A DNA stretch of 64,000 nucleotides from Alphaproteobacteria bacterium (GCA_009784235.1 WRCC01000002.1:89687-153686); one strand, 5' to 3'; positions 2-64,000 are shown, counted from the stretch's first letter. Translations and numbers: made by a program. The notes: generated from the letters alone by a model not told the origin.

Positions 2-544
2 TTGCGCTTCTTTTATTTTATTGGTTTCTGCATAAATTTGGCCACGAATAAATGCACGCCAAGAATCATTGCCGCGCAAAGAATCAATAAATTTCAGCGC
101 GGCGGGCGCATTTCCCGTTGCGACCGCTGACCAAATCCGCACGGGCGCGATTAATTGTGAATCATTGTTTTTGAATTTATTATAAAGCGTTTTCCAATCG
201 TCTTTTTGCACCAGATAAGCGGCATAGGCAACCTGGGCGGCCAGACCGGGTTCATTTGCCAAAATGCCGGCTGAATCATCAATTTGGCCGGCAACAAATT
301 TTGCAATCGCGCGACTATTTCGTACAGATGGAATATCAACATTTTGCAGTCGGTCGGCAAACCGTGCGACCGCATTAAAATCATCCACATGCATTGCGTG
401 TTGTGCCGCCAAGAAATTACCGAAATCAGTATCCGGAAATGCCGCACGTGCGGGCATGGCGGAATCATGCGCAACACGTATGCCCAGCGATACAGCTAAT
501 GCCGCCGCGGCCACGAACGACACAATCATACCTGTGCGTTGCAT
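2..544 (-). CDS. Hypothetical secreted protein, N-terminal 181 aa in window; gene continues past position 1
   Basis: Hand translation of the minus frame. ATG at 542-544 gives MQRTGMIVSFVAAAALAVSLG..., a signal-peptide-like N-terminus. No stop was found down to position 2. The frame is absent from the ORF track because it has no in-window stop. The rest is Ala-rich and TPR-like. Confidence 0.4.
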   Translation of the reverse strand, partial: MQRTGMIVSFVAAAALAVSLGIRVAHDSAMPARAAFPDTDFGNFLAAQHAMHVDDFNAVARFADRLQNVDIPSVRNSRAIAKFVAGQIDDSAGILANEPGLAAQVAYAAYLVQKDDWKTLYNKFKNNDSQLIAPVRIWSAVATGNAPAALKFIDSLRGNDSWRAFIRGQIYAETNKIKEAQ

Positions 545-594
545 TGTTTTTATTTCTGGATGTTTTTTTGCAGATGTTTTCATCATATGTTATA

Positions 595-1167
595 ATGATG
601 CAAATGGACATAGAAGTCAAATTTTCAATATATGAAAAAATGCTGCGCGAATGGAATTCGCGGATGAACTTGGTCGCGCCCAGTACTTTGGCCGATGTGC
701 GCATACGCCATATCGATGATTCACTGCAATTGGCGGAATATATTCCAATGAATACGCACGTTATAGATTTGGGCAGTGGCGCTGGATTCCCAGCGGTTGT
801 TTTAGCGATACTTGGGTATAATGTTACATGCATTGAATCAATTTCAAAAAAATGTGCGTTTTTAAATGCGCTGAAATCCGAATTGAATTTGCCGAATTTA
901 ACAATCATAAACGACCGTATTGAAAATTTTGTAAAAACAATGCGCTGCGGCAAATCTGTGGTGTTCACGGCACGCGCATTCGCATCTTTGGAAAAGATTT
1001 TTGATATGACGGGACGCGTCGGCGCACCATACGCTTTGTTAAAAGGTGAAAATATTGACGCCGAAATTACAACTGCGCGCGAAAAATATAAATTTGAAGA
1101 TAGGTTACATCCATCAAAAACTGGACCTGGTTTTATATTTTTATCTGGTCCGGTCAAATTAATATAG
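595..1167 (+). CDS. rsmG: 16S rRNA (guanine527-N7)-methyltransferase RsmG (GidB)
   Basis: HIDDSLQLAEY...IDLGSGAGFPAVVLAI motif region. The ATG at 595 (or 598/604) lies downstream of a TATAAT. The longer ORF from 394 overlaps the divergent gene and is unlikely. Confidence 0.85.
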   Translation: MMQMDIEVKFSIYEKMLREWNSRMNLVAPSTLADVRIRHIDDSLQLAEYIPMNTHVIDLGSGAGFPAVVLAILGYNVTCIESISKKCAFLNALKSELNLPNLTIINDRIENFVKTMRCGKSVVFTARAFASLEKIFDMTGRVGAPYALLKGENIDAEITTAREKYKFEDRLHPSKTGPGFIFLSGPVKLI

Positions 1168-1256
1168 TTTCGCTCGATGCTTCACATCTGCGCGTATCCT
1201 CATGGTTGCTCGAATTTCGCTGTGCTCGTTCTTGCATACTCGGATTCCGGCCGAAT
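1168..1256. repeat. Dispersed ~80 bp repeat R-F, copy 1 (rsmG-parA intergenic)
   Basis: Same as copy 2. 14-mer CTGCGCGTATCCTC is identical. Ends in the T-arm-like CTCGGATTC. Confidence 0.7.
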
Positions 1257-1441
1257 CGCACATTTTTATATGTCATTTTGCCGGCCTTTTTGATGTTTTT
1301 TATCGATTCGGCCGGTAATTTTGAACAACATTATTTTTCATACGAACTTTTTGGTAACTAATTGATTTTCCGCATTTTATAAAAATCTCTTGACCGAATC
1401 GGTCAATAGCGCCATTATTTCATATGAACAAAGGAAGACAA

Positions 1442-2206
1442 ATGGCGAAAATTATTGCATTTGCGAATCAGAAAGGCGGCGTTGGAAAAACCACAACGGC
1501 GATAAATATTGGCGCATCTTTGGCCGCAACAAACAATCGTGTTTTGTTGATTGACCTGGACCCCCAAGGCAATGCCGGTACGGGATTGGGCTTTGTTCGC
1601 AACGCGCATACGCAATCGGTCTACCCGGTGATAATGGGGCGCGAATCGGCTGCAAATAATATACTTTCGACGGCGGTCAAAGGCATGCATATTATGCCGG
1701 CATCAATGCAGTTATCAGGGGCCGAGGTCGAATTGTTAGATGCCGATAACCGCGAATATCGTCTGCGCGATGCCTTGGTGCCGATTGCCAGCCATTATGA
1801 CTATATTTTGCTGGATTGTCCGCCTGCCCTGGGTTTTTTGACTATAAATGCGCTGTGTGCGGCAAAATGGTTGGTTGTGCCATTGCAGTGCGAATTCTTT
1901 GCGCTGGAAGGATTACAGCAATTAATCAACAGCACGCAAAAAATCCGTGAAAAATGGAATCCGGAATTGGAATTACTGGGCGTATTATTAACCATGTACG
2001 ACCGGCGGAATAACCTGTCGCGCGCAATCGAGGACGACGTGCGCACCGCATTCGGCGACAAAGTGTTTAAAACCGTAGTGCCACGGAACGTAAGGGTCAG
2101 CGAGGCACCATCACATGGCCAGCCCGCCCTGTTCTATGATTTTAATTCACCCGGCGCCCAGGCGTATCTGCGGATTGCAACGGAATTAATAGGAGCATCA
2201 TCATGA
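1442..2206 (+). CDS. parA: Chromosome partitioning ATPase ParA/Soj
   Basis: MAKIIAFANQKGGVGKTTTAINIGASLA P-loop. AAGGAAG ribosome-binding site before the ATG at 1442. Positioned between rsmG and parB. Confidence 0.9.
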   Translation: MAKIIAFANQKGGVGKTTTAINIGASLAATNNRVLLIDLDPQGNAGTGLGFVRNAHTQSVYPVIMGRESAANNILSTAVKGMHIMPASMQLSGAEVELLDADNREYRLRDALVPIASHYDYILLDCPPALGFLTINALCAAKWLVVPLQCEFFALEGLQQLINSTQKIREKWNPELELLGVLLTMYDRRNNLSRAIEDDVRTAFGDKVFKTVVPRNVRVSEAPSHGQPALFYDFNSPGAQAYLRIATELIGASS

Positions 2207-3072
2207 GTAAATTTGGACTTGGCAAGGGTTTGGCAGATTTAAAGGCGGAAATGGGTGCACCGGTGGAATTGGGCGTTTTGGCCGGGGGTGAACGCGTTGT
2301 TGTTAAACAAATCTCAATTTCGCAGATTATTCCAAATCCGGACCAGCCGCGTAAAACATTCGCACCGGCCGAATTAAATGATTTGGCGGCATCAATCAAA
2401 GAAAAAGGCGTGTTACAGCCTATTTTGCTGCGCATGGGTAAAAATGGCCAATATGAAATTGTTGCGGGCGAACGGCGTTGGCGCGCATCACAAATCGCCG
2501 GCCTTTCTGACATTCCGGCATTGGTTAAAACTCTGTCGGATTCGAATACGATGGAAATCGCGCTGATTGAAAATGTCCAGCGCGAAAACCTGAACCCGAT
2601 GGAAGAATCGGCCGCGTATGTAAATTTAATTTCGGCCTGTGCGTACCAGATTTCCGACGTTTCACGCATTATTGGCAAATCGGAAAGCTATGTCCGGAAT
2701 ATCATGCGTCTGGACGCCCTGCCTGAATCTGTAAAAGAACTGGTCCGGTCGGGCGAACTGTCATCATCACATGCGCGTGCGATTTTGGTGGCTGAAAACC
2801 CGGCCGAATTAGCAAAAAAGATTCTGGATGCCAAGATATCCGTAAGCGATACTGAAAAAATGGTAAAAAACGTCGCGCGTTCGTCAAGTTCCCGGTCTTT
2901 TCGACCAAATTTGGTCTCGGACAAAGAAATTTGTCAATATCAGAAACAAATTGGCAAAGCAATCGGCGCACCGGTCAAATTCAAAATGCGCAAAGGTGGG
3001 GCAGGGGACATAATCATCCGATTCGAAACCAAAATCCAAATGGATAAATTAATTGAAAAATTATCTAAGTAA
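2203..3072 (+). CDS. parB: Chromosome partitioning protein ParB/Spo0J
   Basis: ParB box IVAGERRWRASQIAG. ATGA overlap with parA. Confidence 0.9.
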   Translation: MSKFGLGKGLADLKAEMGAPVELGVLAGGERVVVKQISISQIIPNPDQPRKTFAPAELNDLAASIKEKGVLQPILLRMGKNGQYEIVAGERRWRASQIAGLSDIPALVKTLSDSNTMEIALIENVQRENLNPMEESAAYVNLISACAYQISDVSRIIGKSESYVRNIMRLDALPESVKELVRSGELSSSHARAILVAENPAELAKKILDAKISVSDTEKMVKNVARSSSSRSFRPNLVSDKEICQYQKQIGKAIGAPVKFKMRKGGAGDIIIRFETKIQMDKLIEKLSK

Positions 3073-13210: not shown

Positions 13211-14257
13211 TTATTGCTGAATCGTACCGGCGGTGCAACCAATAAATATAGCATTCGGTACACCGATAAAAGATTCTGGTTCAATGCCAGTCATCCACAC
13301 TTGGGCATCTGCTTTGCCCAGTTCCATAAACAAGTGCGTGCGCGCATTTTTATCCAGATGCGCGGCAACTTCGTCCAGTAATATTATGGGTGATTTGCCG
13401 GTTTTGGCACGAATTAACTTCGCATGTGCGATTGATAGTGCCAGCAAGGCGGATTTCTGCTGGCCTGTTGATGTCATTGCCACAGGCATATCCAGCGCAG
13501 CATTAAACATACCGAAATCAGTTCGATGTGCACCATCGATATTCATTTTATCCGCGACCAGAAACCGATTCGCCGCCAAATATTCCGCGTATTCGCGTTC
13601 TGTGTTCGCAGACATATTTTGTTCCAGCCAACCAGAAATCGATATCGCGTAATTTTCCAAGAAATAATTAATTTCGCCCGCGTATGTCACGCGCGCGGCG
13701 GCGATGGCGGTTGCTGCACTTGCAATTTGTGCATCCAGTCCGGCAATCCAATTATTATCTGCGCGGCTTTTCAGCGCAAATGTTCGTTCGGATAATAATT
13801 TGGAAAGTCGTGCAGTGCGCCCAGAATGCGCCGGGTCAAACCCGGCCACCAATCGGTCAAAGAAAGCCCGCCGGTCGGACGCAGTTTCAACAAACAGTCG
13901 GTCTTCGCGCGGTGTAATCCAGATTATACGCAAATGCCGCGCCAAATCTGATAATGGCACTGCATCGCCGTCAATCATTACACGCCGCCGCGCATCGCCA
14001 TTTGTCCACGACACGGATATATTTGTTTCATTATCCAATTCCGCAACAACACCAAAATCATTTGCACCGATTTGAACCAGTTCCGCTGGGGCGCCACCAC
14101 GCAGTGTTCCGGATGCGGACATAATGCTGACTGCTTCCAGAATACTGGTCTTGCCGCTGCCGTTCGGGCCAGTGACAACAATATTCTTTGCGTCCGATGT
14201 TTTTATCCGGCTGGCCGAATGATTACGAAAATTGGAAAATGTCAGGACAGAAATCAT
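13211..14257 (-). CDS. recF: DNA replication and repair protein RecF
   Basis: MISVLTFSNFRNH start. VVTGPNGSGKTSILEAVS Walker A. ABC/SMC-like C-terminal region. Confidence 0.85.
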   Translation of the reverse strand: MISVLTFSNFRNHSASRIKTSDAKNIVVTGPNGSGKTSILEAVSIMSASGTLRGGAPAELVQIGANDFGVVAELDNETNISVSWTNGDARRRVMIDGDAVPLSDLARHLRIIWITPREDRLFVETASDRRAFFDRLVAGFDPAHSGRTARLSKLLSERTFALKSRADNNWIAGLDAQIASAATAIAAARVTYAGEINYFLENYAISISGWLEQNMSANTEREYAEYLAANRFLVADKMNIDGAHRTDFGMFNAALDMPVAMTSTGQQKSALLALSIAHAKLIRAKTGKSPIILLDEVAAHLDKNARTHLFMELGKADAQVWMTGIEPESFIGVPNAIFIGCTAGTIQQ

Positions 14258-14269
14258 AATAAAAAACAG

Positions 14270-14343
14270 TGGAGGCCTGGGTCGGAATCGAACCGGCATA
14301 GACGGATTTGCAATCCGCTGCATAACCACTCTGCCACCAGGCC
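14270..14343 (-). tRNA. tRNA-Cys (anticodon GCA)
   Basis: GGCCTGG...TTGCAAA anticodon loop. Discriminator U + CCA. Near-identical to E. coli tRNA-Cys through the anticodon and T arms. Confidence 0.85.
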
Positions 14344-14442
14344 ACCGTTGGCATAACATAGGGCATTAAACCCTACTTTTCAACTTAAAAATTTCTGGAA
14401 ATTCGTTTTTTATGATATAATATTCAAGCCGAGAGAATTTTC

Positions 14443-17104: not shown

Positions 17105-17824
17105 TTAGATTGCCTTTACCACCCGACAAAATACAATTCCATAAACTGCTTTCGCGCCGGATTTTTTCAGCGTGCGACGCAATTCTGAAAAAGTCGCGCC
17201 GGTTGTCATAACATCATCAACCAATAAAATCGTTTTGCCGCGGATGTTGCCCGGTCGCGAAACTGTAAATACACCGCGAATGTTGTCGACGCGCGCACGA
17301 TAATTTTTATGTCCCATATCGGGTCGATGTTTTCGGCGGACAGATGCAGTATCAATCGGCGCATGCAAATGCCGCGCAATTGGTCGGGCCAGCAATGCTG
17401 CTTGGTTATATCCGCGTTTAAATAATCGGCGCCAAGACAATGGCACTGGCATAATTACGTCAATTTCTGTATCCAATTCGCGAAGTGATGCAATCATCGC
17501 ACGCGACATCAAATCACGATATTTAAGTGCAGACGCGTGTTTAAACGGCAGCATAACATTTTTCGATGCATCATCATAAATGCATGCCGCCCGCATCCAA
17601 TCCAATTCATTCTTGTCTGCGGCGCATATCGGGCACATCGGCCGCGACCCCAAATCCAAATTTGCTGGAAACGGATATCCGCAGATACAGCATTTCGGGT
17701 CAGAAATCCAATCAAAATTCGCCCAACACGATGCACACAGCATGCCATTTGTCGATACTGATGCGCTGCACACTGGACATGCGGGCGGAAATATAAAATC
17801 TAAGATTTTGGAAAATACTACCAA
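17105..17824 (-). CDS. comF: ComF-family phosphoribosyltransferase-like protein
   Basis: N-terminal Cys4 zinc ribbon (CPVCSAS...CASCW...CCICGYPF). C-terminal PRTase motif ILLVDDVMTTGATF. Confidence 0.7.
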   Translation of the reverse strand: MVVFSKILDFIFPPACPVCSASVSTNGMLCASCWANFDWISDPKCCICGYPFPANLDLGSRPMCPICAADKNELDWMRAACIYDDASKNVMLPFKHASALKYRDLMSRAMIASLRELDTEIDVIMPVPLSWRRLFKRGYNQAALLARPIARHLHAPIDTASVRRKHRPDMGHKNYRARVDNIRGVFTVSRPGNIRGKTILLVDDVMTTGATFSELRRTLKKSGAKAVYGIVFCRVVKAI

Positions 17825-34117: not shown

Positions 34118-34465
34118 GTGAGAAACACGATAAAACAACATAAAGACTTCCTGATACCGGACGATGCGCCGCGCTTTGTCACGGATTTTTTTATCGTAAA
34201 ATCGCGCCCGACAAAATGGCCGAATGACGCACGATATGGTTTGACGGCGACAAAAAGAACATTCAAATTGGCGCATGACCGCAATCGTGCAAAGCGTCTG
34301 GTTCGTGCATGGCTGCGCGAATGCGAATCTTTGATGTCGCCGGAAATGGATTATGTTTTTATTATGCGTGCACCGATTCTGGTCGCGAAAAAACCCGATG
34401 GTATCGCGCAAATTACGCGCGCACTGAAAAGGCTAGCCATTATTGGTGCGCCGAACCCGGCGTAA
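34118..34465 (+). CDS. rnpA: RNase P protein component
   Basis: KRTFKLAHDRNRAKRLVRAWLRE core motif. GTG start at 34118. Not preceded by rpmH. The 3' end overlaps the mnmG 3' end convergently by ~33 bp. Confidence 0.75.
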   Translation: MRNTIKQHKDFLIPDDAPRFVTDFFIVKSRPTKWPNDARYGLTATKRTFKLAHDRNRAKRLVRAWLRECESLMSPEMDYVFIMRAPILVAKKPDGIAQITRALKRLAIIGAPNPA

Positions 34466-36280
34466 AATATTTATAATGCCCGCGGGCGTTATGCCTGGAA
34501 TACGTGATAATGCGGCGATTGTTTCCGGACGCGCGGCCGATAATTTTTCTTTCAGTTCATTGGTCAATCCGGACATTGCAGCATAATCAAAACCCATCGG
34601 AATTTTAATATCTTTATCGCGGTTATATCGTTCAATTTCACGTTGCGCCCGCGCAATATATCCAGCGTAAAATCTATCATTTTGATTTATGATTTCGGCC
34701 TTTTCAGCGATATTTTTTTCATAATGTTCGCCTGTAATCAATCCGGCTGCAACCGCCATTGGTCCCAGGCGCGTGATTGCATTATCCGCGCGCAGGCTCA
34801 ATCGGTATTCCGCGCGGGATGTGAACATTCGATAAGGTTCATCTACGCCCAGCGTCGTAATATCATCGATTAGTACACCGATATATGAATTGGTTCGGTC
34901 GATTTGTAGGGGTGCGCACCCACCCATTGAAATCGCAGATTTCAATGGGACCCGGGATTCGCGCCCCAGGGCGCAAGTATGCGCCCCTACAAAAGCCGCG
35001 GCGTTCGCACCCGCGACGATACCTTGGGCTGCGGCTTCTTCGTACCCCGATGTACCATTAATTTGCCCAGCGAAAAATAATCCCGGAATGTCTTTGGATT
35101 CCAATGTTGACTTTAACACACGCGCATCAATCGCATCGTATTCGATTGCATATCCATATCGTTCGATACGGGCGTTTTCCAGGCTTGGAACACTGCGAAT
35201 AAATTTATCTTGGACTGCCGCGGACATACTGGTCGATAAACCATTTGGATAAATTAATTTGCCATTTGCTGTCTCTGGCTCCAAAAATATTTGGTGTGAA
35301 CTGTGTTCTGGGAATCGCATAACTTTGTCTTCCAAGGATGGGCAATACCGCGGCCCGGTACCAACAATTTCACCGTTATACATCGGCGCGTCGGTAATAG
35401 TATCGCGAATAATTTGGTGCGTTTCAGATGTAGTGCGGGTGATATAGCAATTGGTCGGTCCAAAGTTTGGGTAAACCACCCCGCCCTTTGGGCATCCCTC
35501 CAAAGGGGGGGAACTAAACCACGGATGATTCGTATCCCCTGGCTGTGCCTCGCACACCGAAAAGTCAATACTGTCCGCATAAATACGCGCGGGTGTTCCG
35601 GTTTTCAGACGTAATAATTTGAATCCGGCGCGTTCAAGCGTCGCGGAAATATTTTTATCGGCCGTCTGATATGTGCCGTCGTCTTGCAATCGGCCAGATT
35701 CGATTTTTTCGCATCCGCGATGGACCAAACCCCGCAAAAAAGTCCCGGTCGTAATAACAATTGCCGTCGCACGATATTTTCCGTTTATGATTTTGTTTTC
35801 GATATCCAAAGTTTCGACGGATTCATAAATTATTTCGGGATAGACTATATCTCCCCCTCCTTGAGGGGGGCCGTCTGCGAAGCAGATCGGGGGGAGCTCC
35901 CCCTCGTCGCCCTTTGGGCGACACTCCCCCTCAAGGAGGGGGAGATATAGTCCGAGCAGATTTTTCACTGCATCCCGATACTTATCCCGATCGATTTGTG
36001 CGCGTAATGCCTGGGTCGCGGGGCCGTGCGAAGCATTTAAAACACGGAAATGAATACCGGCCATATCGGCGGCACGCGGCATTATTCCGCCCAAGGCGCC
36101 CAATTCCGCAACCAATTGCGATTTTCCAGGCCCACCAATCGATGGATTGCAAGACAGCGCGCCCAAATCATCCGGCGATTTGGTCAAAAGCAGGGTGGCC
36201 GCACCCATACGTGCTGCTGCCGCGGCTGCTTCGACCCCGGCATGTCCGCCGCCAATAACAATTACATCAAATTCTTTCAT
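34433..36280 (-). CDS. mnmG: tRNA uridine-5-carboxymethylaminomethyl synthesis enzyme MnmG (GidA)
   Basis: MKEFDVIVIGGGHAGVEAAAAAARMG FAD motif. GPRYCPSLEDKVMRF. Carries three in-frame palindromic-element insertions (P-C, P-A partial, P-B). Confidence 0.9.
   Translation of the reverse strand: MKEFDVIVIGGGHAGVEAAAAAARMGAATLLLTKSPDDLGALSCNPSIGGPGKSQLVAELGALGGIMPRAADMAGIHFRVLNASHGPATQALRAQIDRDKYRDAVKNLLGLYLPLLEGECRPKGDEGELPPICFADGPPQGGGDIVYPEIIYESVETLDIENKIINGKYRATAIVITTGTFLRGLVHRGCEKIESGRLQDDGTYQTADKNISATLERAGFKLLRLKTGTPARIYADSIDFSVCEAQPGDTNHPWFSSPPLEGCPKGGVVYPNFGPTNCYITRTTSETHQIIRDTITDAPMYNGEIVGTGPRYCPSLEDKVMRFPEHSSHQIFLEPETANGKLIYPNGLSTSMSAAVQDKFIRSVPSLENARIERYGYAIEYDAIDARVLKSTLESKDIPGLFFAGQINGTSGYEEAAAQGIVAGANAAAFVGAHTCALGRESRVPLKSAISMGGCAPLQIDRTNSYIGVLIDDITTLGVDEPYRMFTSRAEYRLSLRADNAITRLGPMAVAAGLITGEHYEKNIAEKAEIINQNDRFYAGYIARAQREIERYNRDKDIKIPMGFDYAAMSGLTNELKEKLSAARPETIAALSRIPGITPAGIINILRRVRRTNNG
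34925..34990. repeat. P-C palindromic element (variant) inserted in-frame in mnmG
   Basis: CCCATTGAAATCGCAGATTTCAATGGG + GCGCCCCAGGGCGCAAGTATGCGCCCCTAC. Encodes VGAHTCALGRESRVPLKSAISMGGCAP, compared with VGAHSCAPGREYAPLR in metG. Confidence 0.75.
35471..35514. repeat. P-A palindromic element (partial) inserted in-frame in mnmG
   Basis: GTAAACCACCCCGCCCTTTGGGCATCCCTCCAAAGGGGGGGAAC. Encodes SSPPLEGCPKGGVVY in the FS...CYIT loop. Confidence 0.75.
35846..35950. repeat. P-B palindromic element (105 bp) inserted in-frame in mnmG
   Basis: TATATCTCCCCCTCCTTGAGGGGG...CGTCGCCCTTTGGGCGAC...CCCCCTCAAGGAGGGGGAGATATA. Encodes ~35 extra residues (LPLLEGECRPKGDEGELPPICFADGPPQGGGDI). Confidence 0.8.
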
Positions 36281-36443
36281 GGGGGTAAATATATAATAAA
36301 AAAACTGGAAATCCATAAAAACTTGTACTATAATTGGCGCTATGTACAACAAGAACATAATTATTAGAGGATAACTGGCAGACGCGCTTTGCAGTTATTC
36401 CTGTGGGCGCATCGGCGTCCATTTTTTTATCAAAGGCATCAAA

Positions 36444-55422: not shown

Positions 55423-57729
55423 TTATGACGTTGGTGTCGTGTGGCATGTTCCGTTGTCTGTACGCGCGGTATGTCCGGGCATACATCTGATACCAATCAT
55501 TGGACATCCGATGTTGCCGACTGGCGGGGTCCCGTCAACCACAGCGCCGGGCATCGGTGATGTGCATGTTGGGTCCAGATTGGCATTCGGCGGCGGCAGA
55601 ACACAACGGCCGTTCAAGAATCCATATCCAATATTGCACAGACATTTTTCATTCACAAAAACGCGATTCAATAATGCGGCGGCCAGCGGCGGTGTGGTCA
55701 CGTTTGGATTGGTTAATATTGAACCAGCCGATGGTACGGGCGTCCAATTGGCCGTATTAATATATTCCGAATTCGGGTCGGTGCACAGCATGGATTGATA
55801 GAACAAGCTGGATATGTTTTCGATACATGTTTCTTGCTGGGCCGTTGATGATGATATTACGTTGTTTGTGGTCGTGGTTGGGCAAGATGCGTTATCCGCA
55901 GAAAACACGGCATAAGCACACGTCAATGCCACATTACGGCACGCGCCGCGCATAACGTTATGTATGCTGGTGACAGACGCCGCGGATGACCATGCGTTGA
56001 CCTGGCTGACCTGTTGGCTGTAACAATGCGCGATGTCTTGCATACAAGTCGTTGCGAACCTGGAAATTGCGCGTTCTTGGCCGGCCTTTATATTAACCAT
56101 CGCGCGTTGAATATAATTAACAACGATATCGTTATGCGGATTGTATTTACCGCCAGCAGAGTATGAAAATTGGCGGCATTTATCCAATACCACGCGGCAC
56201 ATGCCGGATGTTGGTGATTCGCCCATGCCGATTTTGCTTTGCAAGAATCGCACGATTTCAAATCCATTGGTTGCCGTGGATAATGATATCCCAGTTGGGC
56301 AAGTGCCAGCCGCATTATTACCGGCAATTATTTCGCCGACCTTGCTGTTATCAAAGCACATCATTGTGCGGCGGATGTTATTTATATTTTGGCCCAATAC
56401 AATTTCGCCATTTTCGTCGATAAAGCGCTTCGATGGGTCCAGGCATTTGATATAATCATTTCCGCAAACCATATCGTCGGACATACATTGTTCCAGCGCG
56501 CCCAGGCAACCCTTGGCATCAAATTGATTCTGATTTTGCAGAACGGCCAGACGGGCTTTCTGTAACATTTGCGTCGCTGCGCGAACGTTGTTGCGCAGCG
56601 TGTCGTTCATACGTCCCAATCCTTGTTCAAACGCGATACAATCTTTATCAATTTCCATGTCATATCGTGCGGTGATTGCTTGGGCATTGACGCCTTGGGC
56701 GGTACAGGTATTCAGAACGTTACGGCAACGTGCTTTGGCCGCATTATGTAATTGTGTTCCACGCATATTGGAAAAAGAACCGCCGCCGCCAAACATTTCC
56801 AGCGAAAACATTTCTTCCAGACTGTCCGTATTTGTGAAATCCAAATCCAGATCCATCAGCGCGTTACCGGTGTTGGCTTCGTTCACAAATGTTTCCGGGC
56901 TGCGAATTAATTTTTCAATGGATTCCAGCATCTGGCGATTTTCGGTCGTATCCGTTTGGCCGGCCAGTGCCAATTCGGCTTCGGTTGCCGTCATAATCGC
57001 GCGGATTTCATCGGCGGACAATCCGACATAGCGAATGCGTTGGGCAACATCATTTAATTGGTTATTCGCATCGCGCACGGCACGTTCCGAACGTGTGTAA
57101 GTGTTAAGGCGCGCCGAACATGAACAGCGTTTCTGGTTCGCATCAATAACATTGCAGAATTGGTCCATGCAATCCATGTATTGCTGGCGGCATGCCTCGG
57201 TCAGGGCGTTCAGCGCGCCCAGTCGTTCGGTTGTTTCCGCAACAGATGCAGATGTTGGGCGTGCAGCGGCGCTGCGCGCGACGCGTTCGGTATTATTTAT
57301 ATTTGAACCGGTCATTGCACCGGCGGTGCCAGGAATGGTTGCGCGGCCGCCAACTTCGGCAACAGATGGGCGAAGCGTGACACCAGCGCGGCGCACGGCG
57401 GCGGATTCATTCGCGATACCTTTTTCATTTTCATTGAATGCCGCTCGCATCTCTTCGCGTTCCATTGCAGTTTGTTGCGCGCCAACGGTTGCGCGCGATA
57501 CGCCCGCACGTGCAGGCATGGGTTCAGATGCACCGCGTACAATTGATGAAGATGCCGCGCCGCGTTGGATAATTGCGGGCTGGACCGCGGCCGCTGTTTG
57601 TGCCGCCGCAACAGATGCAACCGCTGCGCGTCCGGGAACAACAGGCGCGGCTTCATCGGCGTGCAAAACCGGGGCTGATACAATCAACCCCAGTATTGTT
57701 GTTCCAATGATACGGTTCAGTGTTTTCAT
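55423..57729 (-). CDS. Cysteine-rich secreted repeat protein A (768 aa), paralogue of the upstream gene
   Basis: Signal peptide MKTLNRIIGTTILGLIVSAPVLHA. Ala-rich linker. Recurrent CRNVLNTC / CRVVLDKC / CRNVALTC motifs. Shared YMDCMDQFC...RCSC block with protein B. C-terminal EGF-like CLCNIGYGFLNGRC. Confidence 0.6.
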   Translation of the reverse strand: MKTLNRIIGTTILGLIVSAPVLHADEAAPVVPGRAAVASVAAAQTAAAVQPAIIQRGAASSSIVRGASEPMPARAGVSRATVGAQQTAMEREEMRAAFNENEKGIANESAAVRRAGVTLRPSVAEVGGRATIPGTAGAMTGSNINNTERVARSAAARPTSASVAETTERLGALNALTEACRQQYMDCMDQFCNVIDANQKRCSCSARLNTYTRSERAVRDANNQLNDVAQRIRYVGLSADEIRAIMTATEAELALAGQTDTTENRQMLESIEKLIRSPETFVNEANTGNALMDLDLDFTNTDSLEEMFSLEMFGGGGSFSNMRGTQLHNAAKARCRNVLNTCTAQGVNAQAITARYDMEIDKDCIAFEQGLGRMNDTLRNNVRAATQMLQKARLAVLQNQNQFDAKGCLGALEQCMSDDMVCGNDYIKCLDPSKRFIDENGEIVLGQNINNIRRTMMCFDNSKVGEIIAGNNAAGTCPTGISLSTATNGFEIVRFLQSKIGMGESPTSGMCRVVLDKCRQFSYSAGGKYNPHNDIVVNYIQRAMVNIKAGQERAISRFATTCMQDIAHCYSQQVSQVNAWSSAASVTSIHNVMRGACRNVALTCAYAVFSADNASCPTTTTNNVISSSTAQQETCIENISSLFYQSMLCTDPNSEYINTANWTPVPSAGSILTNPNVTTPPLAAALLNRVFVNEKCLCNIGYGFLNGRCVLPPPNANLDPTCTSPMPGAVVDGTPPVGNIGCPMIGIRCMPGHTARTDNGTCHTTPTS

Positions 57730-59768
57730 TACGGATTAATTACGCCCCAATCAGTGCCGAATGTGCGAATACTGTGGTCTGTGCCGATTGCTTGGCTGAT
57801 ACAGAATTCGCGCAGTTTCGCAGAATCCATATTCGCTCCGTACGACGGTGCAAAGCCTGCGATATTGCCCGCGCCCGTAACACCGGACAATATTTCTTGC
57901 AGTGTCACAACGTTGCGGCAAGTGTTCGTATTCCGTTCTTGGATGTTGTTACAGCTGGTGCTGTCTTGCACATCGATAACTTTGCGGAACTGTGCGGCTG
58001 ACGGGTTACATATCATCGGTTGATAACATGCCGGCGCGTTCATCATCTGGACGCAATATGTACGGATACGTGACGGTGTCCACGGTGTTGTCGTGTTACG
58101 CGTTGCTTCGAATTGTGTGCCGTAACATTCGTATATCTGGCTGATACATTCGCTGAAATTCGACATGGCAGAATTTGCTTCGGACAATATTGCGGCTTCG
58201 TCCGCTTGGGCGAATTCCAGACGCTTTGATTGCAGCAATTGTGTCGCAGCGATTTTCTGGTATTGGACGTTTTGTACCTGGCGGCGTAATTCTTCACCAT
58301 ATACGTCACAGTCCGCATTCGCATCCAGCGCATATTTTTGCAATATCGAACGACGTGCATCTGCAATCGGTCGGCGCAGCGCAGCATACGGGTCACCCGA
58401 AGTACCAGTATATCCATAGCATGCCGCAGATGTGCCCGCAGTACCCGTTCCGCCCGGCGTGACAAAATCAATGTCGTTATTATTCACTTGGATAATTGTA
58501 TTATAATTAAATGGACATTGGTTTTGGCCGGCGGGGCATCTTGTGCCTGCGCCGCCTGGGTTACCGCATGTTTCATAAATTCCGTTGAAACACGCATCCA
58601 GAACGCGGTTACAGACATTGTTATGCGCATATTGGAACAAGCTGTAACCCCAAGTATTTGCAAGAACATCGGTTGTAACTTGGCTGCCGAATATATTTCC
58701 GGTTCCGCCGCTGATTTGATTCAGTATGTCGGTTACGCTGGCCATGCTGCCCAACAAGGCATTGTCATTATTCAGCGTAATTGTATCAATGTTTTGAATC
58801 TGATTGGCGTATTGGGCCAATGCGGTCTGGATGCTGGATTCAGAACCGGAAAGTCCGCGCCACCAATTTGCACCAAGGCCGAAATTGGCTTCGGAACAAT
58901 ACTGTGGCGGTACGGTCAAGCTGCATTGCGTGGTGCCGCCGAAATACATGTGGTTTTCGCACCATGCGGTCATCTCGGCCGCGTTTCCGCGACGTTGGAC
59001 ATCATTCCAAGATGCACAGTTCATAACTTTTTCCGCATCGGTTAATGTGAACGCCGCGGTAATCTGGCGGCCGCCCGATGCGATAAACAGCGTTAATTCG
59101 CCAGAAACGCGCAACAAATCTTCGCGTGCAGATTGCAGTTGTGCTTCGACCTCGTTGAATGCGCGAACACGGCCGGCACATGCACAGCGGCGTTGACCTG
59201 GGTTACGTGCAGTACAAATTTCATCCATACATGCATAATATGAATTCAAACAATTTGCATAAGCATCTGCGGAAATAAGGCCAGTTGTTGGGTCGATAAC
59301 ATTCGTGACCGTGCCGGTATAAAGGCGATTGAACAAGTTGCCCGTGGCCGATGATTGACCGCGAATTGGCGTGCCGGACAGACTGATACGGCTTTGCATA
59401 TTTGGGGTTGTCGCAGTGCGTGCAACAACAGTACGTGCTTGATTGCCGCCGCGCGGTTGAACGGCGCGATTATTGTCAGCGCCGGCACGTGTTGTGACTG
59501 CACGACTGGGCGATTGGCCGGTTTGCTGCGTTGTGACTGGTACGGCGGCGCCTGCGCGTTGACCGGTTGCCTGTTGAACAGGAGCGGTCGGACCGGTGCG
59601 TCCGGTACGTGCGGCTTGCTGCGCTGGGCCGCCGCGCGGACTGGCAGTGGTGAAAACAGGTGCCGTTTGCGGAATTGGTTGGCCGTAAATCATACCGATT
59701 TCAGCCGTCGCAGCAAATGCGAACAATGAAAAACAGCCAGCGACCAGCAAATATTTTGTCATTCTCAT
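57729..59768 (-). CDS. Cysteine-rich secreted repeat protein B (679 aa)
   Basis: Signal peptide MRMTKYLLVAGCFSLFAFAATA. Gln/Thr/Arg-rich low-complexity linker. YYACMDEICTARNPGQRRCAC block. CNRVLDAC and CRNVVTL motifs. TAATG coupling to gene A. Confidence 0.6.
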   Translation of the reverse strand: MRMTKYLLVAGCFSLFAFAATAEIGMIYGQPIPQTAPVFTTASPRGGPAQQAARTGRTGPTAPVQQATGQRAGAAVPVTTQQTGQSPSRAVTTRAGADNNRAVQPRGGNQARTVVARTATTPNMQSRISLSGTPIRGQSSATGNLFNRLYTGTVTNVIDPTTGLISADAYANCLNSYYACMDEICTARNPGQRRCACAGRVRAFNEVEAQLQSAREDLLRVSGELTLFIASGGRQITAAFTLTDAEKVMNCASWNDVQRRGNAAEMTAWCENHMYFGGTTQCSLTVPPQYCSEANFGLGANWWRGLSGSESSIQTALAQYANQIQNIDTITLNNDNALLGSMASVTDILNQISGGTGNIFGSQVTTDVLANTWGYSLFQYAHNNVCNRVLDACFNGIYETCGNPGGAGTRCPAGQNQCPFNYNTIIQVNNNDIDFVTPGGTGTAGTSAACYGYTGTSGDPYAALRRPIADARRSILQKYALDANADCDVYGEELRRQVQNVQYQKIAATQLLQSKRLEFAQADEAAILSEANSAMSNFSECISQIYECYGTQFEATRNTTTPWTPSRIRTYCVQMMNAPACYQPMICNPSAAQFRKVIDVQDSTSCNNIQERNTNTCRNVVTLQEILSGVTGAGNIAGFAPSYGANMDSAKLREFCISQAIGTDHSIRTFGTDWGVINP

Positions 59769-59822: not shown

Positions 59823-59857
59823 AAATCAGAAATCACAAACCCAAAATCATAAATCTA
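59823..59857. repeat. Heptamer array H1 at the rluD 3' end
   Basis: aaatcag aaatcac aaaccca aaatcat aaatcta. Contains the rluD TGA stop. Confidence 0.7.
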
Positions 59858-60842
59858 GGATTTCTTTCAGTTCCAGCATATCGTCGGGCAGCTTTGATTT
59901 AAATTTCATTTTTTCACCGGTAATCGGGTGCGATAATTCCAGTAATTCTGCATGCAGCATCTGCATATTATGCGTTTTTATGAATTCCAATAATTCTGGG
60001 TTTTTGACACTGCCGAACCTGGTGCTGCCGCGGCCGTATGTCGGGTCGCACAATACCGGAAATCCGTGCGCGGACAAATGCACGCGAATCTGATGCGTAC
60101 GCCCTGTGCCCAGCGTGCACCGGAATTCAGAAACACCGTTTCGCGACCAAGCATTTAAAACAACGACCGATGTGTGTGCTTCCTTGCCGCCGACCTTGAC
60201 CATTGTCATTTTTTGGCGGTTGTGTGTGCTGCGCCCGATATTGCCTGAAATATCCGCGGATTCCCAATTCGGAACGCCCCAAACAAATGCAACATATTTC
60301 CGCACCAAATCATGCGCGGCGAATGTTTTTACCAATTCGCGATACGCCGCGTCGGTTTTTGCCAAGATGACAACGCCGGATGTACCCTTGTCCAACCTGT
60401 GCACAACGCCTGGACGTGTATCGCCGCCAATATCGGCCAATGTGGTATGCGTTAAAACAGCGTGAACCAAAGTATCTGTTTCATTGCCTGCACCTGGATA
60501 CATTGCAATCCCGCGTGGTTTGTTCACGACGATGATGTCATTGTCTTCGAATAAAATTTCCAGGTCGGTATTCGGTAGACAGTAGTCAGTAGACAGTAGA
60601 GATTTATCTTGTTTTACAGGAATCGCAACCGAAAATTCATCACCGGGTTTTATTTTTTCCGACAATTTTACTGTTAACTGTCTACTGTCTACTGTCGGCT
60701 TTTTTATTTCAAATTTCTGAATTTCTGTGCGGGAAAAATCCGGCATTTGTACGGCAAGAAATTTATCCAGTCGCATTCCGGTATCATCTTCGGTAACGAT
60801 AAAATTTCTTATTTCGGCGGCCATTGTGTTATCTTGTTCCAA
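59847..60842 (-). CDS. rluD: 23S rRNA pseudouridine synthase RluD (RluA family with S4 domain)
   Basis: S4 domain (MRLDKFLA). Catalytic HRLDKGTSGVVILAKT. Two inverted GACAGTA heptamer arrays inside the coding sequence (60575..60602, 60668..60695). Confidence 0.8.
   Translation of the reverse strand: MEQDNTMAAEIRNFIVTEDDTGMRLDKFLAVQMPDFSRTEIQKFEIKKPTVDSRQLTVKLSEKIKPGDEFSVAIPVKQDKSLLSTDYCLPNTDLEILFEDNDIIVVNKPRGIAMYPGAGNETDTLVHAVLTHTTLADIGGDTRPGVVHRLDKGTSGVVILAKTDAAYRELVKTFAAHDLVRKYVAFVWGVPNWESADISGNIGRSTHNRQKMTMVKVGGKEAHTSVVVLNAWSRNGVSEFRCTLGTGRTHQIRVHLSAHGFPVLCDPTYGRGSTRFGSVKNPELLEFIKTHNMQMLHAELLELSHPITGEKMKFKSKLPDDMLELKEILDL
60575..60695. repeat. Inverted pair of H3 heptamer arrays inside rluD
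   Basis: gtagaca gtagtca gtagaca gtagaga (60575-60602) and ttactgt taactgt ctactgt ctactgt (60668-60695), ~65 bp apart. Encode KSLLSTDYCLP and PTVDSRQLTVK. Confidence 0.8.
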
Positions 60843-61309
60843 TCATCACCATGTTCGCAATTTTCCAGACGAACAATCAATCTGCCGGACATTTGTTCAA
60901 CATCGCAAGTCATTATTCCGCGTGTACGTGCTTGGGTTGCACGACTGTCTGCTTCGCGCCATGCCAATACCAATTGTGTCGGTGGCAGCAGACATGTGAC
61001 ACTCATCCGTGCATCGCGGTTTTCGAAAAATCTTTCCGTTGGGCCGACCCAAATACGGACATTTTCGGTCTGGCCATAACATGGAAATCCGTCCAAGTAA
61101 TATATTTCTGTACCAATGCTGCTGGTGCGTCGTTCCGACCCAAACCAAATATCATATGGCGCCAGACGTAATCCGGTGACGGCTTCCCAATCTGAACTGG
61201 TCGAAAATATAGACGCAATTGGACCGCAAACGGGCGGCGGCGGTGTCGCGGCATTTGCCACAGCAAAAAGTAAAAAGTAAAAGGTAAAAAGTAAATAAGT
61301 TTTCTTCAT
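60809..61309 (-). CDS. Hypothetical secreted protein
   Basis: Signal peptide MKKTYLLFTFYFLLFAVANA. Its hydrophobic region is encoded by an AAAAAGT heptamer array (61265..61299). Confidence 0.4.
   Translation of the reverse strand: MKKTYLLFTFYFLLFAVANAATPPPPVCGPIASIFSTSSDWEAVTGLRLAPYDIWFGSERRTSSIGTEIYYLDGFPCYGQTENVRIWVGPTERFFENRDARMSVTCLLPPTQLVLAWREADSRATQARTRGIMTCDVEQMSGRLIVRLENCEHGDDWNKITQWPPK
61265..61299. repeat. Heptamer array H5 (AAAAAGT x5) encoding a signal-peptide hydrophobic region
   Basis: aaaaagt aaaaagt aaaaggt aaaaagt aaataag. Confidence 0.8.
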
Positions 61310-61328: not shown

Positions 61329-61829
61329 CTAATCTGCGAAAACCACATTTGCGCGGCGGACGCTTTGCGATTTTATTTGGACTTCTTGTTTGAAATTTGC
61401 ATGTTCACCTGCGTCCAGCAACGGTGCCGGCGGCATAATTTTAATTGTTTCAATCACATCGCCGGAATCGTTTTTTAATTCCAATGCCATATCCGGAATG
61501 CCATAAATCTTGTCCGTGATATTTCGCACCGTACCCGTAACCATAAATCCATGGGCGTTGTCCTTGGATTCGGTTGGTATTATTTGAACAGATTCGATAA
61601 TCAATGGGTCCGGTGATTTTCGTGGCCTTGGCGATTTAATTGTTATAACGATTGCGAATACCAGTGTGGCCAACAATGCACATATACTGGCAAAAATCAG
61701 CAAGAAATTATTTTTGGCGCGCACGGGCGCCCATTCGTTTCCACATGCCGCGCATGCAACGCGCGTGGGCACGCCCGTAACCGAATATTCTGTTTTACAA
61801 AAAGGACAGGATGTCTTCATAGGTCGCAC
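61329..61829 (-). CDS. MJ0042-type zinc-ribbon / DUF3426 membrane protein
   Basis: CPFCKTEY...CAACGNEW zinc ribbon. TM helix. C-terminal DUF3426-like domain ending VVFAD. Confidence 0.55.
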   Translation of the reverse strand: MRPMKTSCPFCKTEYSVTGVPTRVACAACGNEWAPVRAKNNFLLIFASICALLATLVFAIVITIKSPRPRKSPDPLIIESVQIIPTESKDNAHGFMVTGTVRNITDKIYGIPDMALELKNDSGDVIETIKIMPPAPLLDAGEHANFKQEVQIKSQSVRRANVVFAD

Positions 61830-61840
61830 TCTACTATAAA

Positions 61841-63142
61841 TTAATCTAAATTCAATAAATGATATTTTGCGGTGACGCGGGTTTTAATTTCAGCAATTGC
61901 CCGTGCATAATCTGCGACCGTGGCATTGGTGTTGTTTGCAATTTGTGACATTGTTCGTTCTGTATCTGTACGCAGTGTGCCAGATTCACGGCGCACGGCG
62001 GCACGCATCATAATACCCAGGTTCGGAATGGACATATCGGATAATTCTGCGGTTTGCGCCGCCGCGTCCCAATAAAATGAATTGTTATTCGGGTCTGAAA
62101 TTTTACCGGTAACGGACAGATATGGCGTGACAGAGCCGGTAAAACCAACGAACGCAAGGCCCGCCGAAATACGTCCGCCGGTCATATCAAGATTACGGTT
62201 TATGTTCAGTGTTGCAGGCGCGCCGTCCGACCGAACAGATGCGCCATGCACATATAAATCACCGGTCCACAGTTCATTCGCGGTGACATTGTTGAACCTG
62301 GACATACCGCTGACCGTCATTCTGTTTGTTTCCAGAACACGCGAATCCGAAGATATCGCACCGTTCACATTCGCATCGGTTATCGTGAACCGACCATCCA
62401 ATGTTGGACTGTTTTCAATTACCGCGCGACTGGCCGACAAAGAATGTGTGTTCAGGAATTCGGAAAACTTTGCAACTTCGCTGAATATACTGCGCGCGCC
62501 GGTGATGGCATGCCCGCCCAGCGATATGTCGGATAACATCGTTGCATCGGACGCGGAATCAGATGGCAGGCGCCGCAAAAATTCCGTACCAAATCCAGAC
62601 GTCCGCGTAACATCCAATATTGCGTTATCGGCAAACCGCGCGTTCCAGATTGTGGCAGATGTTTCCCATGTCCCATATATACTGTGCAATTTTCCGCCGG
62701 CCGCATATCCGCCACCGGTTATTTCTGCAATTTCGCGTGTTCGCATTGGCGTCATTTCGCCGGTTTCCATAATCACGATTCCTTGCATAAATGCGCGTCC
62801 GGCGCGGTCGGCGGTTTTAATAACACGTAACTGATATTGTTCCGGACGGTTTATGTCTGTTGGGGTCAGGCCGTATGGTTCCAGGTCAGCAATATTCACA
62901 CGAAACACGCGTCGCCCGATTGTTGTTCCGAATTCTTTTTTTCGCGCATCAATATATTTTTCAAGCGCAGTGCGAACCATCGCCATATCACGCCCAGCGC
63001 GAATATTTTCAGCGCGCGCAACGCGTGCAGATTCTTGGCGCGACAAAAATGGCAACATTGCGGCGGCCAATGCCATGGCCAGCAATAATTCAATCATCAT
63101 GCGGCCAGATTGCTGTCGAAAATTTAATTTATTCTTCTTCAT
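61841..63142 (-). CDS. Large prepilin-type (class III signal) protein, putative minor pilin or pilus-associated adhesin
   Basis: MKKNKLNFRQQSG|RMMIELLLAMALAAAML: short basic leader, Gly at -1, Glu at +5, hydrophobic helix. ~400 aa Ser/Thr/Gly-rich C-terminal domain. Confidence 0.45.
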   Translation of the reverse strand: MKKNKLNFRQQSGRMMIELLLAMALAAAMLPFLSRQESARVARAENIRAGRDMAMVRTALEKYIDARKKEFGTTIGRRVFRVNIADLEPYGLTPTDINRPEQYQLRVIKTADRAGRAFMQGIVIMETGEMTPMRTREIAEITGGGYAAGGKLHSIYGTWETSATIWNARFADNAILDVTRTSGFGTEFLRRLPSDSASDATMLSDISLGGHAITGARSIFSEVAKFSEFLNTHSLSASRAVIENSPTLDGRFTITDANVNGAISSDSRVLETNRMTVSGMSRFNNVTANELWTGDLYVHGASVRSDGAPATLNINRNLDMTGGRISAGLAFVGFTGSVTPYLSVTGKISDPNNNSFYWDAAAQTAELSDMSIPNLGIMMRAAVRRESGTLRTDTERTMSQIANNTNATVADYARAIAEIKTRVTAKYHLLNLD

Positions 63143-64000
63143 GTTCACCGTTGGATTGTGTGCCTGCGCCGCGCGTTTCTTTCCATCCTTTGTTTAAAAT
63201 TTTTGCAAATTCGGCCACTGGGACATTTGAAAATTCTGGAATATTTTGGGCGGCGCCCGCACTGCGCAGGACCAATGAATTAAATCGCGGCGCCGGTGAT
63301 GTTGGAAACGACCATTGGCCCAGTCTCAGCGGCACGCCGCCGAATGTTAATTCGCTGGACACTGATACGCCGAATCCATCACCGAATCTTAAATTGGTTG
63401 CAGATAAATATGGAACAGATACAGAATAAGCCGATATTTCGGCAAAACCGGACAGCGACCCGGAATATGCCGCGCGAAAATGCAAATTGCGCCCAACATG
63501 CAATGCGTCTGTGATTGTTGCGCGGTCGGCGATTATCTGACCTTGGGCGGGCCAGCTTTGCGTGCCGCCAGTGCCGCGGAATTCATTCGCAGAAATACTG
63601 CGAAATCCGGTTATATCGCCGGATACGCGCAGATTTTGAATTGTTGCGTCTGTTGGATTCATTACGGTGCCGCTTTGAAAAATTGCATCGTCAAATGTGG
63701 CAGATTCCGAATTTACAAACCAAGCGGATACGTGTTTTGAATCCAGCATTCCGGCGCGTGCATCATCAACATTGCGCAATGAACGGCGGCCCATTAACAA
63801 ATCGCGTTCCATCGTGTTTAAAATTGTATCTTCGCCGGTGCGAATGCGGTGCAAGAAAACCGTCGAATCATCCGGTGATAAGTGCACAGATACGCGAAAT
63901 ACCAAATCGTTTTCGTGGAATGTCTCGGATTCAATTGACCAGCCGCCGCCAGCGGAAAACGCCAGGCCATTGCTGTCCGCGATTGCGGCATCAACGCCCA
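63129..64000 (-). CDS. Ser/Thr/Gly-rich protein, C-terminal part; frame open to the window end
   Basis: Hand translation shows no stop upstream to position 64000. Composition resembles the C-terminal domain of the prepilin-type protein. 20 bp overlap with the downstream gene. Confidence 0.4.
   Translation of the reverse strand, partial: GVDAAIADSNGLAFSAGGGWSIESETFHENDLVFRVSVHLSPDDSTVFLHRIRTGEDTILNTMERDLLMGRRSLRNVDDARAGMLDSKHVSAWFVNSESATFDDAIFQSGTVMNPTDATIQNLRVSGDITGFRSISANEFRGTGGTQSWPAQGQIIADRATITDALHVGRNLHFRAAYSGSLSGFAEISAYSVSVPYLSATNLRFGDGFGVSVSSELTFGGVPLRLGQWSFPTSPAPRFNSLVLRSAGAAQNIPEFSNVPVAEFAKILNKGWKETRGAGTQSNGEHEEE

Follow-up and report, generated by a model that had tools for sequence, protein, structure and literature searches.

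The last 4 kb of a 64,000-nt stretch of DNA from Alphaproteobacteria bacterium (GCA_009784235.1, WRCC01000002.1:89687-153686; referred to here, at its full length, as the window) carry five closely packed genes on the minus strand, g2 to rluD, which are the distal two-thirds of a lineage-wide operon that consists of a divergent gene, g0, and the series g1-g2-g3-g4-g5-rluD. The products of g1, g2 and g3 are ancient paralogues, each with a class III (prepilin-type) signal and a PilV-like N-terminal region of ~200-300 residues, and sequence comparison identifies the three families as remote homologues of PilV, a minor pilin/adhesin of type IVb conjugative thin pili that RefSeq annotates as a tip adhesin (PMC9045228, PMC5297154, PMC5430464). 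We favor, with moderate confidence, the interpretation that the operon is a type IV pilus tip or minor-pilin module, in which a heteromeric PilV-like tip complex and the ZitP-like protein encoded by g4 serve in attachment. The block is probably the attachment device of this lineage, and we infer both pilus assembly and a pilus function for g1-g3.

Class III signals and PilV homology of the gene trio

The gene highlighted by an earlier note on this DNA, g3 (61841..63142 (-)), encodes a large type IV pilin-like protein of 433 residues whose N-terminus, MKKNKLNFRQQSG/RMMIELLLAMALAAAMLPF (here and below the slash marks the putative cleavage site), consists of a 13-residue basic leader, a glycine at position -1, the residues RMMIE, which place a glutamate at +5, and the hydrophobic first half of helix alpha1. 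This class III signal (63038..63142 (-)) can be read directly from the sequence, and each of the elements that the note had described, from the short basic leader to the hydrophobic helix, is found where it was placed. The note had also staked its reading on the conservation of Glu+5 among orthologues; in ~80 genomes glutamate occupies this position in 79 of 80 g3 and 78 of 79 g2 proteins, and in g1 the residue is glutamine (76 of 76). The signal motif itself, a basic leader ending in Gly-1, is present in 76 of 78 g1, 79 of 80 g2 and 80 of 81 g3 orthologues. An alignment of 35 g3 homologues that are 34-55% identical shows no variation at E18 (+5), P31 or F32 and at least 90% conservation of G13 (-1). 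In a PDB search with the profile of this family, its leader and alpha1 lined up with those of Geobacter PilA-N (RNKKG/FTLIELL; E 5e-4). Weak matches to N_methyl, Pilin_N and Shufflon_N are scattered among its members.

The upstream reading frame, g2, overlaps the start of g3 by 14 nt and stays open, with no in-frame stop, to the window edge at 64000; the window thus holds its C-terminal 290 codons (63129..64000 (-)), and its N-terminus lies past the window end. The earlier note had correctly reported the overlap and the truncation, but g2 is more than the partner of similar composition that it had proposed: the full protein is a 428-residue paralogue with a class III signal of its own (MRILKKHFQREQRG/SNLMETLLAIALVAAMTPF; QRG/SNLME), as seen on two contigs (L001 and L002) that an exact-sequence look-up found to be identical to window DNA. 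Among the public contigs that carry this DNA, one of 498 kb is 100% identical over the 10 kb compared, and the exact g3 gene call is present in public assemblies. Upstream of g2 lies the third paralogue, g1 (481-486 aa), which begins ...SESG/NFLLQALLAVSLVIAFMPW (G/NFLLQ). BLASTP relates g1, g2 and g3 as distant paralogues over their first 60-220 residues. The Ser/Thr/Gly-rich composition ascribed to g3 proved to be a moderate enrichment (24.7% of residues, or 27% after residue 60, vs 18.7% for ten housekeeping proteins encoded in the window), and the protein contains no repeats.

Two of the 35 g3 homologues score 26.9-27.0 bits over ~205 residues with the Pfam model Shufflon_N (PF04917), under its cut-off of 27.5. 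When one Shufflon_N-scoring homologue was used as a tblastn query against 7.3 Gb of plasmids, 147 records matched weakly, and all 45 among the matches listed, from best to weakest, fell on annotated pilV genes, whose products are described as 'shufflon system plasmid conjugative transfer pilus tip adhesin'. A PilV profile was then assembled from nine plasmid sequences (Escherichia, Xanthomonas, Pseudomonas, Enterobacter, Stenotrophomonas, Pantoea, Citrobacter and Arsenophonus), and hhalign matched it to g3 with a probability of 99.2% (E 3.5e-19, 270 columns), to g1 with 98.2% (E 5.1e-14, 186 columns) and to g2 with 97.7% (E 2.5e-12, 308 columns). A control alignment of g3 with a small canonical pilin reached a probability of 18% (E 1.3e-3) and covered only 28 columns, which indicates that the match to PilV comprises more than the common hydrophobic helix. 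Moreover, PilV and g1-g3 have in common the motif YL(W/Y/H)R...LN.M...(D/N)(M/L)GG..I, which marks the end of the homologous region; it reads DYLYR..VPG.PELNRM.T.IDMGGNDINN in PilV and EYLWRLPSD...DATM.S.LNLGGHDI in g3, with clear counterparts in g1 and g2. Profile searches of the PDB with g1 and g2 returned no match.

AlphaFold2 models of g3 predict the 'lollipop' layout that is expected of a pilin. In the model of the full-length protein (predicted local distance difference test score, pLDDT, 69), a helix spanning residues 14-66 precedes an alpha/beta domain (78-178); residues 234-366 form a beta region of low confidence, and three helices make up the C-terminal domain (373-429). The N-terminal 220 residues modeled alone (pLDDT 78.8, predicted template-modeling score 0.65) adopt the same topology, with a 56-residue helix at residues 11-66 (pLDDT ~90); the strands predicted after the helix are at 78-82, 103-109, 118-125, 145-154 and 175-178.

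The g3 family is large. A first search returned 57 homologues, and a full hidden Markov model (HMM) search retrieved 751 representative proteins at E<=1e-3, including relatives of 500-650 aa and ~1000-1200 aa that contain the same N-terminal 250-300 residues. The sources of ten of the 751 were checked: four bear a taxonomic name, all of them uncultured metagenome-assembled genomes (MAGs; three labelled Alphaproteobacteria), and six are metagenome sequences. The longest relatives (P0143, P0144, P0157 and P0186 (L178 10001..13702); ~1000-1230 aa) have the pilin-like N-terminus QKG/SMMVEALAMLGLI, a long middle region rich in Gly, Ser, Thr and Asn, and a strongly conserved C-terminal block, YQVNPAYTSVMHDIKLTTRGGARLSDILPDFINKGIY ... 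CPPGY ... CYFER. On L178 the large relative is a solitary gene, not part of a trio, and a BigA-like giant adhesin is encoded nearby.

A lineage-wide operon and its ZitP-like member

A scan of one genome per species found 207 relatives, and the gene order was compared in 81 related loci. The block formed by g0 and g1-g2-g3-g4-g5-rluD is collinear in 81/81 loci, and its outer flanks vary; contig ends cut off g0 or g1, so that each gene is intact in 76 to 81 loci. All of these loci are from Candidatus Enterousia/order Rs-D84. Each of the best 80 relatives is an uncultured alphaproteobacterium of the gut (the labels are Candidatus Enterousia, 'Rickettsiales bacterium', and MAGs from termites, chickens, ruminants and humans), corresponding to the order Rs-D84 of GTDB. 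The rluD gene is syntenic in 81/81 loci and also in a distant lineage with a GC content of 32%, in which the trio occurs in the same Q/E/E order and is followed by four inserted genes, a zinc-ribbon protein, a g5-like protein and rluD. A further lineage, L183, keeps g0 and the trio and has RecO downstream. As described in a published survey (PMC12306168), Rs-D84/Candidatus Enterousia is a widespread uncultured gut lineage of termites, poultry, ruminants and humans with reduced genomes of ~1 Mb, without flagella or nucleotide biosynthesis and with almost no biosynthetic capacity, and is proposed to be partner-dependent. The operon, whose proteins are all annotated as hypothetical, makes up ~0.5% of an Rs-D84 genome.

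Downstream of g3 in the window are g4 (61329..61820 (-)), g5 (60809..61309 (-)) and rluD (g6; 59847..60824 (-)), the last encoding an RluD-type pseudouridine synthase (Pfam PseudoU_synth_2, E 3.8e-29). About 20 nt separate g3 from g4 and g4 from g5, and the ends of g5 and rluD overlap by 16 nt, such that neighboring genes of the operon either overlap or are 11-20 nt apart. A search for a terminator inside the operon yielded none that was convincing, and promoter and terminator scans gave counts equal to the shuffled expectation. The two genes that follow g3 had been described beforehand as an MJ0042 zinc-ribbon/DUF3426 protein and a small secreted protein; both are present, and for the zinc-ribbon protein the matches at family level are clear.

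The 163-residue g4 protein, which starts at MKTSCPFC (61820; an upstream GTG at 61829 is less likely), is a bitopic protein that combines a cytoplasmic CxxC...CxxC zinc ribbon with four invariant cysteines, a transmembrane helix (a hydrophobic segment at ~residues 43-65) and a periplasmic DUF3426-like domain. Within its family, Zn_ribbon_4 is matched by 37 of 38 members, DUF3426 by 16 of 38 (best E 5e-5) and Zn_ribbon_5 by 6 of 38; the window protein itself stays below the Pfam and NCBIfam thresholds (DUF3426, 17.6 bits vs a cut-off of 27.7). The family profile matches PDB entry 2nb9 (E 0.001), and Trp33 of g4, which is at least 90% conserved, aligns with its W35. We take 2nb9 to be the ZitP zinc finger of PMC5182065, because its sequence contains CxxC-X19-CxxC and W35. 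Trp35 of ZitP is required for PopZ binding (PMC5182065), and g4, judged by sequence, has the ZitP architecture including the equivalent of this PopZ-binding residue. In Caulobacter, ZitP is a bitopic polar protein and a pilus-biogenesis factor (PMC5182063), and its best-conserved role is polarity control, not pilus assembly (PMC5182065). Neither CpaM nor Tad genes were seen in the sequence around g4. Profile searches of a large protein database with g4, and with the small pilin described below, recovered among the matches listed only their own families.

The 166-residue g5 protein, encoded in 81/81 loci, has a signal-peptide-like N-terminus, four invariant cysteines and an FPCYG motif, and it matches no Pfam, NCBIfam or PDB profile. 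At the other end of the block, g0 (~100 aa; L002 6796..7086 (-)) stands divergently beside g1 in 76/81 related loci, a linkage to the trio as tight as that of any other gene; its product has an acidic C-terminal tail ending in GFPDFI and consistent sub-threshold matches to DUF4167 (E 1e-4 to 9e-4).

Most of the sister genomes also encode a small pilin near the block. In 66 loci the gene for a 152-residue pilin precedes the block by 1.6 kb, in an arrangement that runs OmpH, OmpA, pilin, dnaX, g0 (for example, L006 4936..5388 (-), between an OmpA-family gene and dnaX). The protein starts M..ESG/RSLIE.., and accordingly has Gly-1 and Glu+5, and it contains a C-terminal pair of cysteines. Matches to PilS/PilS_N in 16 of 33 members identify it as PilS-like; N_methyl is matched by 12 of 33. 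PilS is the natural shaft partner of PilV.

Past g1, the DNA beyond the window contains the divergent g0 (96 aa), ComEC, TruA, Fmt, Def, RmuC and MurG. The remainder of the window is housekeeping in character, comprising gidB, parAB, metG, fabDG, accC, recF, tolC/hlyD/macB, comF, uvrD, lptFG/D, pnp, mnmG, ileS, valS, gyrA and PBP1A; PBP1A was detected in the flanks of only 1/81 related loci. In two distant lineages dnaA is 6-9 kb from the module (L180 147..1496 and L182 113..1462), and the window contains gidB-parA-parB at 394..3072 and mnmG at 34433..36358, positions which suggest that the module tends to reside in the origin-proximal part of the chromosome. Directly downstream of rluD are two genes for cysteine-rich secreted proteins of 768 and 679 aa (55423..57729 (-) and 57729..59768 (-), respectively), which are distant paralogues of one another (BLASTP E 2e-9) with the motif CxxxYxxCMDxxC...RCxC and no family match. 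The equivalent position elsewhere is occupied by other large cysteine-rich secreted proteins, of 1058 aa (L006) and 1239 aa (L182), and one of 714 aa is located near the trio in L180; these may be surface proteins that are functionally linked to the module. Two details concern individual genes. The 5' part of the rluD coding sequence (60568..60696) contains imperfect inverted repeats, with arms of 24-35 nt that are 77-90% complementary and 49-77 nt apart, built from tandem GTAGACA/GTAGTCA heptamers. The longest open reading frame of recF (382 aa; 13211..14359 (-)) overlaps a tRNA-Cys gene (14270..14343 (-)) at its 5' end, which places the true recF start further downstream.

A candidate tip complex and its alternatives

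If the operon encodes a pilus tip, the following arrangement can be envisaged. The g1-g3 proteins would be inserted in the inner membrane through their alpha1 helices, and a prepilin peptidase encoded elsewhere would cleave them after the conserved glycine; they would then combine into a heteromeric complex that forms the tip of a type IVb-like filament or primes its assembly. The minor pilins of the type II secretion system (T2SS) and of type IVa pili offer a precedent, as there the member that lacks Glu5 caps the complex. By analogy, g1, with Gln at +5, would sit on top, a position that does not call for a salt bridge with the subunit before it, and g2 and g3 would dock beneath it via Glu5. 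The shaft would be built by the PilS-like 152-residue pilin in most of the clade, and the periplasmic DUF3426 domain of g4 would allow this protein to position or permit assembly at a particular site of the envelope, which is what ZitP does for the Tad pili of Caulobacter, with g5 as a periplasmic accessory factor. The likely role of such a filament would be to attach the cell to a surface or to a partner, and possibly to capture DNA or nutrients, in bacteria with ~1-Mb genomes that are unable to make most of their building blocks.

A number of results weigh against this proposal. The window g3 scores below every Pfam and NCBIfam threshold and has no Pfam match to Shufflon_N; no window protein matches N_methyl (PF07963/TIGR02532) at the curated threshold, and weak N_methyl matches are found in just 5 of 35 members of the g3 family (best E 0.0028). 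Foldseek searches of the PDB with both g3 models found no pilin (best E 0.29). The hallmarks of a shufflon are also missing: the 3' end of g3 lacks a multi-copy inverted repeat and the flanks lack an rci recombinase, and the C-terminus of g3, unlike that of PilV, is among its best-conserved parts (N404, N406, T408, D411 and A415 are invariant). An HMM search and a relaxed regular expression found no PilS-like pilin in the window, in L002 or in termite-clade loci, and a metagenome scan with the small pilin recovered only rumen and human-gut contigs of the same synteny, with no termite-clade copy. Components of the assembly machinery were sought in the 64-kb window, in L002 (10 kb beyond the window) and within +-10 kb of the module in ~100 related genomes, using motif scans (GspE/PilB Walker A, CpaF/VirB11 P-loop, A24 GxGDxK and secretin motifs) and phmmer queries with plasmid PilN/O/P/Q/R/S/T/U/M. 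Within this sequence there is no A24 peptidase, no PilB/PilQ/PilT/CpaF-type ATPase, no PilC/PilR platform protein, no secretin/PilN and no PilM/O/P; the phmmer queries matched the PilS-like pilin alone. The earlier note had looked to the DNA past 64000 for a prepilin peptidase, secretin or ATPase, and none was found there; the extension instead yielded the third paralogue, the DUF4167-like gene, ComEC and housekeeping genes. In the published survey, type IV pilus genes are described for another gut lineage with reduced genomes, and none is mentioned for Rs-D84 (PMC12306168). Finally, the neighbors of the block, rluD and dnaX, are housekeeping genes, a setting that is compatible with a non-pilus envelope role as well.

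These absences fit the view that g1-g3 are repurposed relics of pilins. According to this view, which we consider doubtful, the filament machinery was lost in the course of genome reduction and the three proteins are uncleaved, bitopic inner-membrane components of a fixed envelope structure, such as a polar scaffold or trans-envelope contact organized by g4, rather than of an extensible pilus. It would account for a search that found no machinery gene in any sequence covered, for a literature that reports no type IV pilus genes for Rs-D84 (PMC12306168), for C-terminal domains that are conserved and not variable, for a block that is universal in ~1-Mb genomes amid housekeeping genes, and for the fact that polarity control is the better-conserved function of ZitP (PMC5182065). 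Against it, the near-perfect retention of Gly-1 and Glu+5, together with a Q/E/E pattern fixed over deep divergence, would be difficult to account for if there were no peptidase processing and no filament-type packing of helices; a canonical PilS-like pilin of 152 residues is kept beside the block in most genomes; and the sequence inspected is a small part of each genome. The opposite extreme, that ordinary signal-anchor helices resemble pilins by coincidence, would agree with the sub-threshold scores of the window protein for N_methyl and other pilin models and with the Foldseek result. We regard it as highly improbable, as the homology to the PilV profile extends over 186-308 columns, past the helix and into a common motif (the control covers 28), the listed plasmid matches (45 among them) fall exclusively on pilV, and G-1 and E+5 are near-invariant.

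A filament of a different kind could also be imagined, namely a competence or T2SS-like pseudopilus instead of an adhesive surface pilus. In this case a short periplasmic filament, capped by the trio as minor pseudopilins, would carry DNA to ComEC for the scavenging of nucleotides or push out a substrate. In the window genome, a gene for ComEC/Rec2 (DUF4131 + Competence; L002 4756..6765 (-)) is located directly past the block in divergent orientation, and a ComF-type protein with a double zinc ribbon and a phosphoribosyltransferase domain is encoded at 17105..17824 (-); ComEC and ComF hint at DNA uptake, which would suit an order that lacks nucleotide biosynthesis (PMC12306168). In addition, one relative is labelled a PulG-type pseudopilin (JGI) and the small pilin a 'type II secretion system protein' (NCBI). 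We nevertheless judge a pseudopilus to be distinctly unlikely: the homology that can be detected points specifically to PilS and the tip adhesin PilV and not to pseudopilins of the Gsp or Com type, the trio proteins, at 430-490 aa, are far above typical pseudopilin size, and no GspD/E/F or ComGA/GB homologue was seen in the sequence searched. Linkage to ComEC was also considered as a conserved feature of the block and rejected, because ComEC was detected in the flanks of only 1/81 related loci, ~7 kb from the block. 

The pilus-tip interpretation thus retains what the earlier note had suggested in calling the genes a pilus-tip adhesin or pseudopilin module, insofar as the PilV homology and the ZitP-like g4 bear it out, and assembly into a pilus is the part that we infer. 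The likeness to MshQ that the note had also suggested was dropped, as nothing in the evidence pointed to it. A bolder version of the proposal, offered as a speculation that we think has a low chance of being correct, is that Rs-D84 possesses a hitherto undescribed, minimal organelle derived from type IV filaments, in which a miniature ZitP positions a fixed Q/E/E PilV-like heterotrimer; it would be assembled by highly divergent or non-canonical means and be essential for contact in a bacterium that depends obligately on a partner. If so, this contact organelle would be a counterpart, of independent origin, to the pili that Patescibacteria require for their hosts.

Relation to known systems

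For the apparatus with which Rs-D84 achieves attachment or uptake, the operon is a concrete candidate. It would indicate that PilV-type adhesins are not limited to conjugative plasmids, and it brings to light a PilV-related superfamily that has so far been unannotated and whose members with a checkable source are all from uncultured Alphaproteobacteria. It also connects a DUF3426 protein of the ZitP type genetically with pilin genes, a link that is testable in Caulobacter or Escherichia coli surrogates.

In its organization the trio resembles the tandem pilin-like genes of GspH-I-J-K and FimU-PilVWX, where one member lacks Glu5, as g1 does here, although those sets have four members and this one has three. 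The large type IVb minor pilins CofB and TcpB are multidomain proteins, and g3 is likewise predicted to have a pilin domain followed by a beta-rich C-terminal part; CofB sits at the pilus tip (cited in PMC9045228). The searches returned no sequence or structure match between either group and g1-g3. The g4 protein has the same domain order as ZitP, the bipolar zinc-finger regulator of pilus assembly and motility in Caulobacter crescentus, which has rickettsial orthologues (zinc ribbon, transmembrane helix, periplasmic DUF3426), and both occur in Alphaproteobacteria (PMC5182063, PMC5182065). However, ZitP is a protein of 311 aa, whereas g4 proteins are 163-175 aa with a much shorter linker, and the cysteine pairs are separated by 19 residues in ZitP and by 14-17 in g4. 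The genetic settings differ as well, since g4 is in an operon with pilin-like genes and ZitP acts on a Tad (type IVc) pilus via CpaM. The small pilin of Enterousia has Gly-1, Glu+5 and the C-terminal cysteine pair of PilS and other type IVb major pilins (PF08805), with a very short leader of 5-6 residues.

The closest resemblance is to PilV of the IncI1/IncI2 thin pili (R64, R721 and TP114) and to PilV2 of PAPI-1. These proteins share with g1-g3 the class III signal, a similar size (~410-495 aa), homologous N-terminal ~200-300 residues that include the YLYR...ELNRM.T.IDMGGNDI motif, and pairing with a PilS-type major pilin, which in the case of g1-g3 is seen in sister genomes. The differences are equally clear. 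PilV is encoded by one gene within the pilL-pilU cluster of a conjugative element and has a C-terminus that is varied by a shufflon, whereas g1-g3 are three fixed paralogues (Q/E/E), chromosomal, vertically conserved in an alphaproteobacterial order, placed among housekeeping genes and equipped with conserved C-termini, with neither shufflon nor rci; the Shufflon_N scores of their kin are just under, or far under, the Pfam threshold. The components are therefore of an already known kind, type IV minor pilins/tip adhesins and a ZitP-type factor. What is new is that they are chromosomal, vertically inherited and triplicated with a fixed Q/E/E pattern, lack a shufflon, have conserved C-termini, are coupled to a ZitP-like gene, are universal in a genome-reduced uncultured order and are missed by current family models.

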